Below are positions 18,341 to 19,317 of a DNA stretch of 57,407 nt, piece after piece (the first letter of the stretch is position 1; every line of letters begins with the position of its first letter). The position numbers and the translations under genes were made by a program. The notes beneath the pieces are model-generated. The model saw nothing but the letters and a program-made list of their open reading frames with translations. It was not told the origin of the DNA and did no database searches. Source of the DNA: Escherichia coli (GTDB lineage: Bacteria; Pseudomonadota; Gammaproteobacteria; Enterobacterales; Enterobacteriaceae); assembly GCF_003334315.1 (NCBI RefSeq), contig NZ_QOWR01000028.1; one strand, given 5' to 3'.

Positions 18341-19317
18341 GAGTGGGTTCCGTACTCTTTGTTTAGTGTGATTGTGACAGGCGTTTCACCGCCGTCTGTA
18401 AAGCGTATGCCCCGACAGCTGTATGCATAGCGATAAATTCCAGCAGGCCGGGACGCCGGTCTATTTTGCCCCAGAGTGTCAATGTTAGACTTGACGGACA
18501 TTGTGCAGCGATCTGCTGCTATCCTCCGGCAAAAAACAAAATATACCTTCGTTGCGCCAATGTCACCTTTTCCGCAGCGCAAAAACTGCGTCAGGGAGGA
18601 CGAGGTCGCACATTATAACGATTTCGTAGCAATTGGCAGCTAAATACTGGTCTTATCAGGGAAGATAATCAACAGCTAACATGTAAATAACCTTCAACAC
18701 CGTGTAATTTGCAACAAGCCGCACAATTCACGAAATTAGCGCCATCATCGACGGAACTTCTTATAACGTAAGGTGAAAAGCTGAAAAGCCAGCCCTGCGA
18801 AGATGAGGGGCTGCAATGAGATAATCTTCACAGACCACAAATAATGTAGGGATGCCAGGATCGCGACAAGATAGACGACATTACGCAGCGGTTGCTGGGG
18901 ATTACCCAATTTTCACTGCATCGTCTGGATAGATGTGAATGCTAAAGCACGCAAAATTAACCGATTGACAATGCTCAGCATTAAATAGGTTCGAGTGATT
19001 AATTTGTAGTCAAACAAAATCAGATTATTCACCCCATGGTACCAGAAATAAGTAAGGGGCTAAGCGTAGCGTCGCCCAGGCAAAGCACCATAAACCTAAC
19101 AGGCGACGGAGGCGTATCAATAATAGCTGTTTAGTGGAGTATCAATGCGCATCAATTTGTGGTCAGTCGAAATCATGACTTTCCAGTTTGGATGATGTTG
19201 TATAACTTCCTGACCAAGGTGTTCGACGAAAGCTGTCCGGCTAACCGCTTTTCCCGTTAACCGATTGAATAATGATTTCAAAATGAGTTCCCTCTCTTAT
19301 TATTCCCTGCTAAATGG

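Follow-up and report, generated by a model that had tools for sequence, protein, structure and literature searches.

A 54-codon open reading frame downstream of acuI

Does the gap between acuI and accB in Escherichia coli encode a small protein, or does it hold the remains of a gene? The question arose in a window of 57,407 nucleotides (E. coli RefSeq assembly GCF_003334315.1, contig NZ_QOWR01000028.1), by which we mean the whole stretch of DNA that was analyzed; the order on its minus strand is csrD (divergent), acuI, a 977-nt gap, accB, and accC, and it is 99.74% identical to K-12 MG1655 over 12 kb (30 mismatches). A first-pass annotation, made from the letters of the sequence, had described a 54-codon open reading frame (ORF) with a TTG start in this gap, and this was borne out: the ORF listing gives 19117..19281 on the minus strand, and the translation matches the one that had been quoted. 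The Shine-Dalgarno (SD) sequence was likewise found as described, with AAGAGAGGG (19290-19298) followed by 8 nt and the TTG (19279-19281), all on the minus strand, and with the acuI stop codon, TAA, 36 nt before the TTG. The features of the locus, with positions in the window, are as follows.

19318..20292, minus strand: acuI (yhdH), acrylyl-CoA reductase, from the ORF list; acuI or yhdH in all E. coli records examined
19290..19298, minus strand: SD-like AAGAGAGGG, 8 nt 5' of the TTG, read from the sequence; inherited from the intact DUF1444 gene
19139..19281, minus strand: yrdF' proper, the first 143 nt (codons 1 to 48) of a DUF1444 (YtpQ/CgoN-family) gene, equal to K-12 b4697; from blastn, K-12 coordinates, and protein alignment
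19117..19138, minus strand: last 6 codons of the ORF (PLNSYY) and TGA, in out-of-frame msrQ-like DNA; from comparison with the msrQ frame
18745..19138, minus strand: yrdE' (K-12 b4646), remnant of an msrQ (yedZ) paralogue covering approximately MsrQ residues 69 to 195, with a frameshift and an in-frame stop; from blastn and tblastn, and a pseudogene in K-12 and PGAP annotation
19038..19138, minus strand: 101 nt limited to the truncated allele (msrQ-like nt ~200 to 305), from blastn; nucleotide diversity (pi) 0.051, the highest of all segments
18612..18639, minus strand: accB promoter-like -35/-10 (CTGCCA-16-TATAAT) from a consensus scan, the start of the conserved accB control region; context, outside the ORF
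17870..18340, minus strand: accB, which closes the 977-nt gap downstream; from the ORF list and annotations

The gap had also been called otherwise free of ORFs, which proved incorrect, as it holds an 89-aa ORF with a TTG start (18313..18582) and a second 54-aa ORF (18745..18909), which corresponds to the C terminus of the msrQ-like remnant. The 89-aa ORF, on the minus strand, crosses the accB leader and extends past the accB start in another frame, and it is probably spurious because it lies within the conserved noncoding leader. Sixty-five ORFs of at least 20 aa were counted in 3.5 kb around the locus, and the length of the 54-codon ORF by itself is not above chance. Rather, going by the alignments described below, what makes this ORF nonrandom is its identity with the 5' end of a real gene.

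The ORF is the 5' end of a DUF1444 gene and a known pseudogene

Comparison of the gap with 5426 complete E. coli genomes by megablast revealed that some strains have annotated genes in it. In O26:H11 strain 11368 and in strain 2013C-3250, a 276-aa "DUF1444 domain-containing protein" (WP_000202360.1) begins at the same TTG, exactly 36 nt past acuI. By blastn, gap positions 1-179, which comprise the 36-nt spacer and the initial 143 nt of the ORF, matched a full-length allele (L001 1501-1679) at 98.3% and gap positions 281-977 matched at 99.4%; between these matching flanks lie 101 nt in the window versus 856 nt in the full-length allele. Residues 1-48, ending in HKLMRIDT, are common to the ORF and the intact protein, after which the window reads PLNSYY and a stop whereas the intact protein continues with GHQTVEITL. 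Truncated alleles, full-length alleles, and Escherichia albertii all have the same stretch, AATAAGAGAGGGAACTCATTTTG, from the SD sequence to the TTG. The full gene (271 aa, TTG start) is present in E. albertii NBRC 107761 with the same synteny from acuI to accB. In that type-strain copy (L008 5001-5816), a 1-nt deletion near the 3' end alters the last residues (271 versus 276 aa). Thus, the window shares the SD sequence, the TTG, the position behind acuI, and the first 48 residues with the intact DUF1444 gene of E. coli O26:H11, O111, O145, and others and of E. albertii, but it lacks codons 49-276 and the terminator that the 271-to-276-aa gene possesses. The GC content of the E. coli DUF1444 gene is 48%, versus 55% for acuI.

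Of the two readings that the first-pass annotation had offered, the pseudogene remnant is therefore the one upheld, as codons 1-48 match the beginning of the intact 276-aa gene at 98% DNA identity and the stretch is the K-12 pseudogene yrdF. By the same token, the ORF could not be called unannotated, since the curated K-12 record carries this stretch as yrdF (b4697). In K-12, yrdF (3404495-3404637, 143 nt) begins 36 nt past the yhdH stop with the same TTG and maps to window positions 19281..19139; the pseudogene yrdE (b4646, 3404638-3405031) comes directly after it, and the yrdF/yrdE boundary is exactly the homology breakpoint mapped here. The window is from a different strain, yet the position, the TTG, and the 54-codon amino acid sequence are identical to those of K-12; the K-12 annotation spans only the 143 homologous nt and not the full 165-nt open frame. 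In many other genomes, the 54-aa product has been named "hypothetical protein" by PGAP or by submitters (WP_000838287.1 and UTI89_C3685; more than 1000 contigs). In the literature, a plasmid insert map was the one use of the name yrdF found for this E. coli locus, and yrdE appears mainly as a neutral site for marker insertion. Together, these results identify the 54-codon ORF as yrdF', the 5' stump of a gene deleted in most E. coli and already known as b4697. What is added here is the proof that the ORF and the annotated pseudogene are the same, the allele frequencies, a test of neutrality, and an ancestral gene order.

The frame ends in a decayed msrQ paralogue

The 101 nt specific to the window and the next ~290 nt constitute a decayed paralogue of msrQ (yedZ), which encodes the heme-binding membrane subunit of the MsrPQ methionine sulfoxide reductase. 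By blastn, yrdE' was 77.2% identical to nt 205-585 of K-12 msrQ over 382 nt; tblastn aligned it with MsrQ residues 101-193 at 68% identity, across an internal stop, and matched residues 83-98 in another frame. The homology of yrdE' to msrQ (77% in DNA) thus covers the C-terminal two thirds, but the yrdE' copy is truncated at its 5' end, frameshifted, and interrupted by the internal stop, and the frame of the ORF is not that of msrQ. For its last six codons and its TGA, the ORF runs through msrQ-like DNA with a frame offset of one base; translated in the msrQ frame, these bases give S-T-K-Q-L-L-L-I, against Y-A-K-Q-P-L-L-I in MsrQ. Gene conversion from the functional msrQ was considered as the source of the 101 nt and was rejected, because the 101 nt lie inside one continuous msrQ alignment (77% overall) and are no closer to msrQ than is the rest of yrdE'.

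The C-terminal tail of functional MsrQ, YKKLRSLFNRLRKQV (K-12 msrQ codons 194-201, L017 5063-5086), resembles the N terminus of the DUF1444 protein and of yrdF, LKSLFNRLTGKAV (19258-19281, minus strand), at 7 of 8 residues. Homology between LRSLFNRL of MsrQ and LKSLFNRL of the ORF was not accepted; the tblastn E values were 0.19 to 0.6 in a tiny search space, the DNA alignment was unconvincing, and the match was taken as chance. The likeness is probably fortuitous, yet it is odd given that msrP lies directly downstream of the DUF1444 gene in a related contig.

Several deposited variants of the locus are irregular. A singleton truncated allele (L018 132-365, Logan SRR12971197; product P0066) has the junction GATACGGGGCGCAAACAGCC instead of GATACTCCACTAAACAGC, so that the ORF runs on in the msrQ frame to 77 aa. 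If real, this junction may be an older form of the deletion junction; the allele was left out as evidence, being a singleton on a contig with homopolymer indels even within accB. In another product (P0011, 205 aa, Logan), AccB residues 1-154 are fused to yrdF' from residue 4, through either misassembly or rearrangement. Frameshifted full-length alleles and interrupted truncated alleles are also found among the deposited products (P0013, P0015, P0131, and P0014).

Allele frequencies and a putative ancestral gene order

With a cutoff of at least 80% coverage of window positions 19038-19317, the truncated allele was called in 4747 of the 5426 complete E. coli genomes, and the intact gene was present in 667 to 670 of them (~12%). 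When the segment 19008..19167 (minus strand), which includes ~30 nt of flank on each side of the 101 nt, was compared by blastn with L001, L006, L007, and L008, which represent full-length alleles and E. albertii, only the flanks were matched. A single deletion from the full-length E. coli allele was thus rejected as the origin of the truncated allele, as each keeps DNA that is missing in the other (101 nt versus 856 nt). Moreover, since the full-length alleles and E. albertii are without the 101 nt, neither E. coli allele can be derived from the other by one deletion.

The relation between the two alleles is resolved by a contig from a related enterobacterium (L021; Logan SRR33454298, 1-2083), which has the order acuI, DUF1444 gene, hairpin with T run, and msrP, with identities of 91% for AcuI, 76% for the DUF1444 protein (276 aa), and 84% for the MsrP N terminus. 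The ancestral arrangement was therefore acuI-DUF1444-msrP(-msrQ)-accB. The contig ends inside msrP, and we infer the place of msrQ behind msrP from the remnants of msrQ that E. coli retains. The two E. coli alleles are deletion derivatives, from which msrP was removed along with differing lengths of flanking sequence. This suggests that the DUF1444 gene and msrPQ were once neighbors at the acuI-accB locus. The functional msrPQ genes of E. coli are elsewhere, adjoining hiuH. Two further observations concern the present state of the locus: strain 14EC017 (NZ_CP024134.1) has an IS1A insertion within the acuI-accB gap, and one copy of the chromosomal stretch with the 54-aa ORF (UDN34184.1) is recorded on a 30.7-kb plasmid.

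Substitutions in the remnant are compatible with neutrality

Twelve truncated alleles across the range of identity were aligned (the window, K-12, two B2-type strains, O157:H7, and seven others). Each of the 12 had kept all 54 codons open, and a length of 54 aa is shared by nearly all deposited products. The frame was thus conserved without frameshifts or stops, as the first-pass annotation would have it for a real gene, but this check had no power: 4.8% of the point mutations in the ORF create a stop, and the probability of no nonsense change in 14 substitutions is 0.50 under neutrality, so the open frame is without evidential weight.

Synonymous-biased substitution, the other expectation for a coding frame, was not observed. 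The remnant has 14 segregating sites, 11 nonsynonymous and 3 synonymous (pN/pS = 0.73 to 0.79; n = 12 alleles), a split that agrees with neutrality, under which 79% of the changes would be nonsynonymous (binomial P = 1.0). The 11 amino acid replacements are K2T, S3P, R7Q, Q24H, H24Y, I27V, I46T, D47V, T48A, L50P, and Y53H, among which S3P, D47V, L50P, and I46T are radical. In the same genomes, acuI has 13 nonsynonymous and 37 synonymous changes (pN/pS = 0.11), and the two splits differ (Fisher P = 0.001). Between E. coli and E. albertii, the intact DUF1444 gene has a pN/pS of 0.12 to 0.16, and it is therefore a real gene under purifying selection. The substitution pattern of the remnant fits neutrality. 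The notion of a small protein therefore found no support, as the separate 54-codon ORF is limited to truncated alleles of the E. coli type and carries this 11:3 split; in E. albertii and in the L021 relative, there is no independent small ORF, and the same codons open the 271-to-276-aa gene.

Nucleotide diversity led to a similar picture, with a pi of 0.014 for acuI, 0.029 for yrdF', 0.051 for the 101-nt piece, 0.032 for the rest of yrdE', and 0.002 to 0.003 for the accB promoter and leader. The yrdF and msrQ-like parts are at a level similar to that of acuI synonymous sites (0.043), and their diversity is 10 to 20 times that of the adjoining accB promoter and leader. In the 36-nt spacer between acuI and the TTG, 2 sites segregate across these 12 truncated alleles.

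The parent protein and its family

Relatives of the intact protein were found in 1017 representative clusters at an E value of ≤0.001; they are typically 260 to 300 aa long and 30 to 38% identical. The intact protein itself matched Pfam DUF1444 (PF07285) marginally (i-E = 0.0063, model positions 15-254 of 264) and NCBIfam PRK13668 with an E value of 5e-5 (23 bits, below the cutoff of 221), and 40 of 46 aligned relatives matched PF07285 at an E value of ≤0.001 (best, 1.3e-19). The 54-aa ORF had no NCBIfam match, and its at most 48 family residues do not allow a near-full-length match to the ~264-position DUF1444 model. Scans of the fragment and its parent against PADLOC and PHROGs gave nothing significant, and no relative was found in the PDB with the parent as query, either by sequence or by fold.

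The YtpQ/CgoN (DUF1444) protein of Priestia megaterium is a flavin adenine dinucleotide (FAD)-dependent, oxygen-independent coproporphyrinogen III oxidase (PMC10965808), and an earlier study tied ytpQ to iron homeostasis (PMC3176815). Through the homologues of the parent gene, the E. coli protein belongs to the same PF07285 family, but its own match is marginal, and the Escherichia protein is not known to have an activity. With less than 20% of the domain, the fragment in the window cannot act as an enzyme; judged from its length, coproporphyrinogen III oxidase activity for 48 residues would be implausible. Among close homologues, conservation of the protein is highest over its first 48 residues. 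In a confident AlphaFold model of the E. coli parent (pLDDT, 89.6), this part folds into a pair of helices and two strands, but the sheet to which the strands belong is complete only with residues 52-56, and the fragment would therefore not be an autonomous domain.

Homologues 60 to 63% identical to the E. coli DUF1444 protein also occur outside the acuI context (L019 3898-4731, L020, and L022). The neighbors in L019 are KfrA_N, Aca2/YdiL, and ResIII-like genes, and because of their plasmid- or phage-like appearance, the DUF1444 gene may be horizontally mobile.

Transcription context and the accB leader

In the full-length allele, an intrinsic terminator lies 63 nt past the DUF1444 stop (L001 2430-2458, 11-bp stem and T run). 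The window allele is without it, the terminator having been lost in the deletion, and no terminator-like site was found in the window between acuI and accB (18341-19317), including the 36-nt spacer. Since this spacer is free of a terminator, it is plausible that the remnant is cotranscribed with acuI. The supplement of one Ribo-seq study, which aimed at shorter, unannotated ORFs, has no entry for the 54-aa ORF.

Farther downstream, the accB promoter and leader (18341-18700, minus strand) are near-invariant in the 12 E. coli alleles and are far better conserved into E. albertii than is the pseudogene DNA. This conserved stretch fits the long, autoregulated 5' leader of accBC. A scan of positions 17800-20600 with Rfam at a permissive threshold gave a single subthreshold match (Ysr190, 18538-18637; 25 bits versus a gathering score of 66; E = 0.55), which falls in the accB leader, and none at the ORF.

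Discussion

In all likelihood, the 54-codon ORF is the nonfunctional 5' stump of a deleted gene, which the acuI transcript probably still includes and which may be translated as a by-product. The ancestral locus would have consisted of acuI, a DUF1444 gene of the YtpQ/CgoN family (~276 aa, with its own terminator), msrP, msrQ, and accB. In the lineage of most E. coli, a deletion would have removed the DNA from DUF1444 codon 49 through msrP to approximately nt 200 of the msrQ copy, joining the first 48 codons, with their SD sequence and TTG, to msrQ-like DNA in the wrong frame and so adding 6 codons and a TGA. Because no terminator lies between them, the remnant, 36 nt behind acuI, would probably be transcribed with it; it may be translated into an unstable 54-residue peptide, for which nothing appears to select. 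The comparisons show the homology, the breakpoints, the allele frequencies, the gene order of the ancestor up to msrP, and a neutral pattern of substitution; from them we infer that the yrdF' remnant lacks function, as well as its cotranscription with acuI and any translation.

Could the remnant instead have acquired a role as a small protein of 54 aa that is expressed from the acuI transcript and built on the conserved N-terminal helix-helix-strand module? The SD sequence and TTG have been kept, the frame is open in every aligned allele with nearly all deposited products of one length, and the 48 N-terminal residues are the most conserved part among close homologues. Against this, the pN/pS of 0.73 to 0.79 and the 11:3 split, radical changes included, fit a frame without constraint, an open frame is expected by chance at P = 0.50, there is no independent small ORF in E. 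albertii or the L021 relative, the fragment would be an incomplete piece of a sheet by the model, and it has no above-threshold family match. We regard co-option as very unlikely. That the truncated allele (~88% of E. coli) still yields a 54-residue peptide from the acuI transcript with a residual or new role, such as binding a partner of the lost enzyme, is a speculation to which we attach very little weight; if true, a pseudogene fragment would have been recycled as a microprotein.

A different proposal makes the peptide irrelevant and lets translation of the ORF act in cis, protecting the 3' end of the acuI mRNA or modulating Rho-dependent termination ahead of the accB promoter. It is raised because the deletion took the intrinsic terminator of the DUF1444 gene: a strong terminator follows the full-length gene, there is no terminator-like site from acuI to accB in the window, and the stretch from the SD sequence to the TTG is identical in all alleles examined. 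However, the proposal is purely inferential, and a conserved SD sequence and TTG in a spacer of only 36 nt with 2 segregating sites is indistinguishable from plain recency and neutrality; moreover, the accB promoter region is itself strongly conserved and needs no upstream input. A cis role thus seems highly improbable. As for a chance open frame in noncoding DNA with a fortuitous SD sequence, the locus is rich in ORFs of such size (65 reach 20 aa or more within 3.5 kb, and the gap has two others of 54 to 89 aa). The homology nevertheless refutes this reading, whose probability is close to nil: over its first 143 nt, an intact gene that is under selection and has the same SD sequence and start matches the ORF at 98% DNA identity.

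The biological weight of the feature is small, as it is a known pseudogene fragment. The case holds a lesson for the discovery of small ORFs, namely, that a good SD sequence, a plausible start, and a protein-like composition are also the look of the 5' stump of a deleted gene, and that comparison with other strains of the same species, ahead of expression work, quickly settles such cases. The side results, the polymorphic intact DUF1444 gene and the ancestral order, are mildly useful. The ancestral order acuI-DUF1444-msrP accounts for both yrdF' and yrdE', and the locus constitutes a presence/absence polymorphism for an intact CgoN-like DUF1444 gene, which ~12% of E. coli, including O26, O111, and O145, possess.
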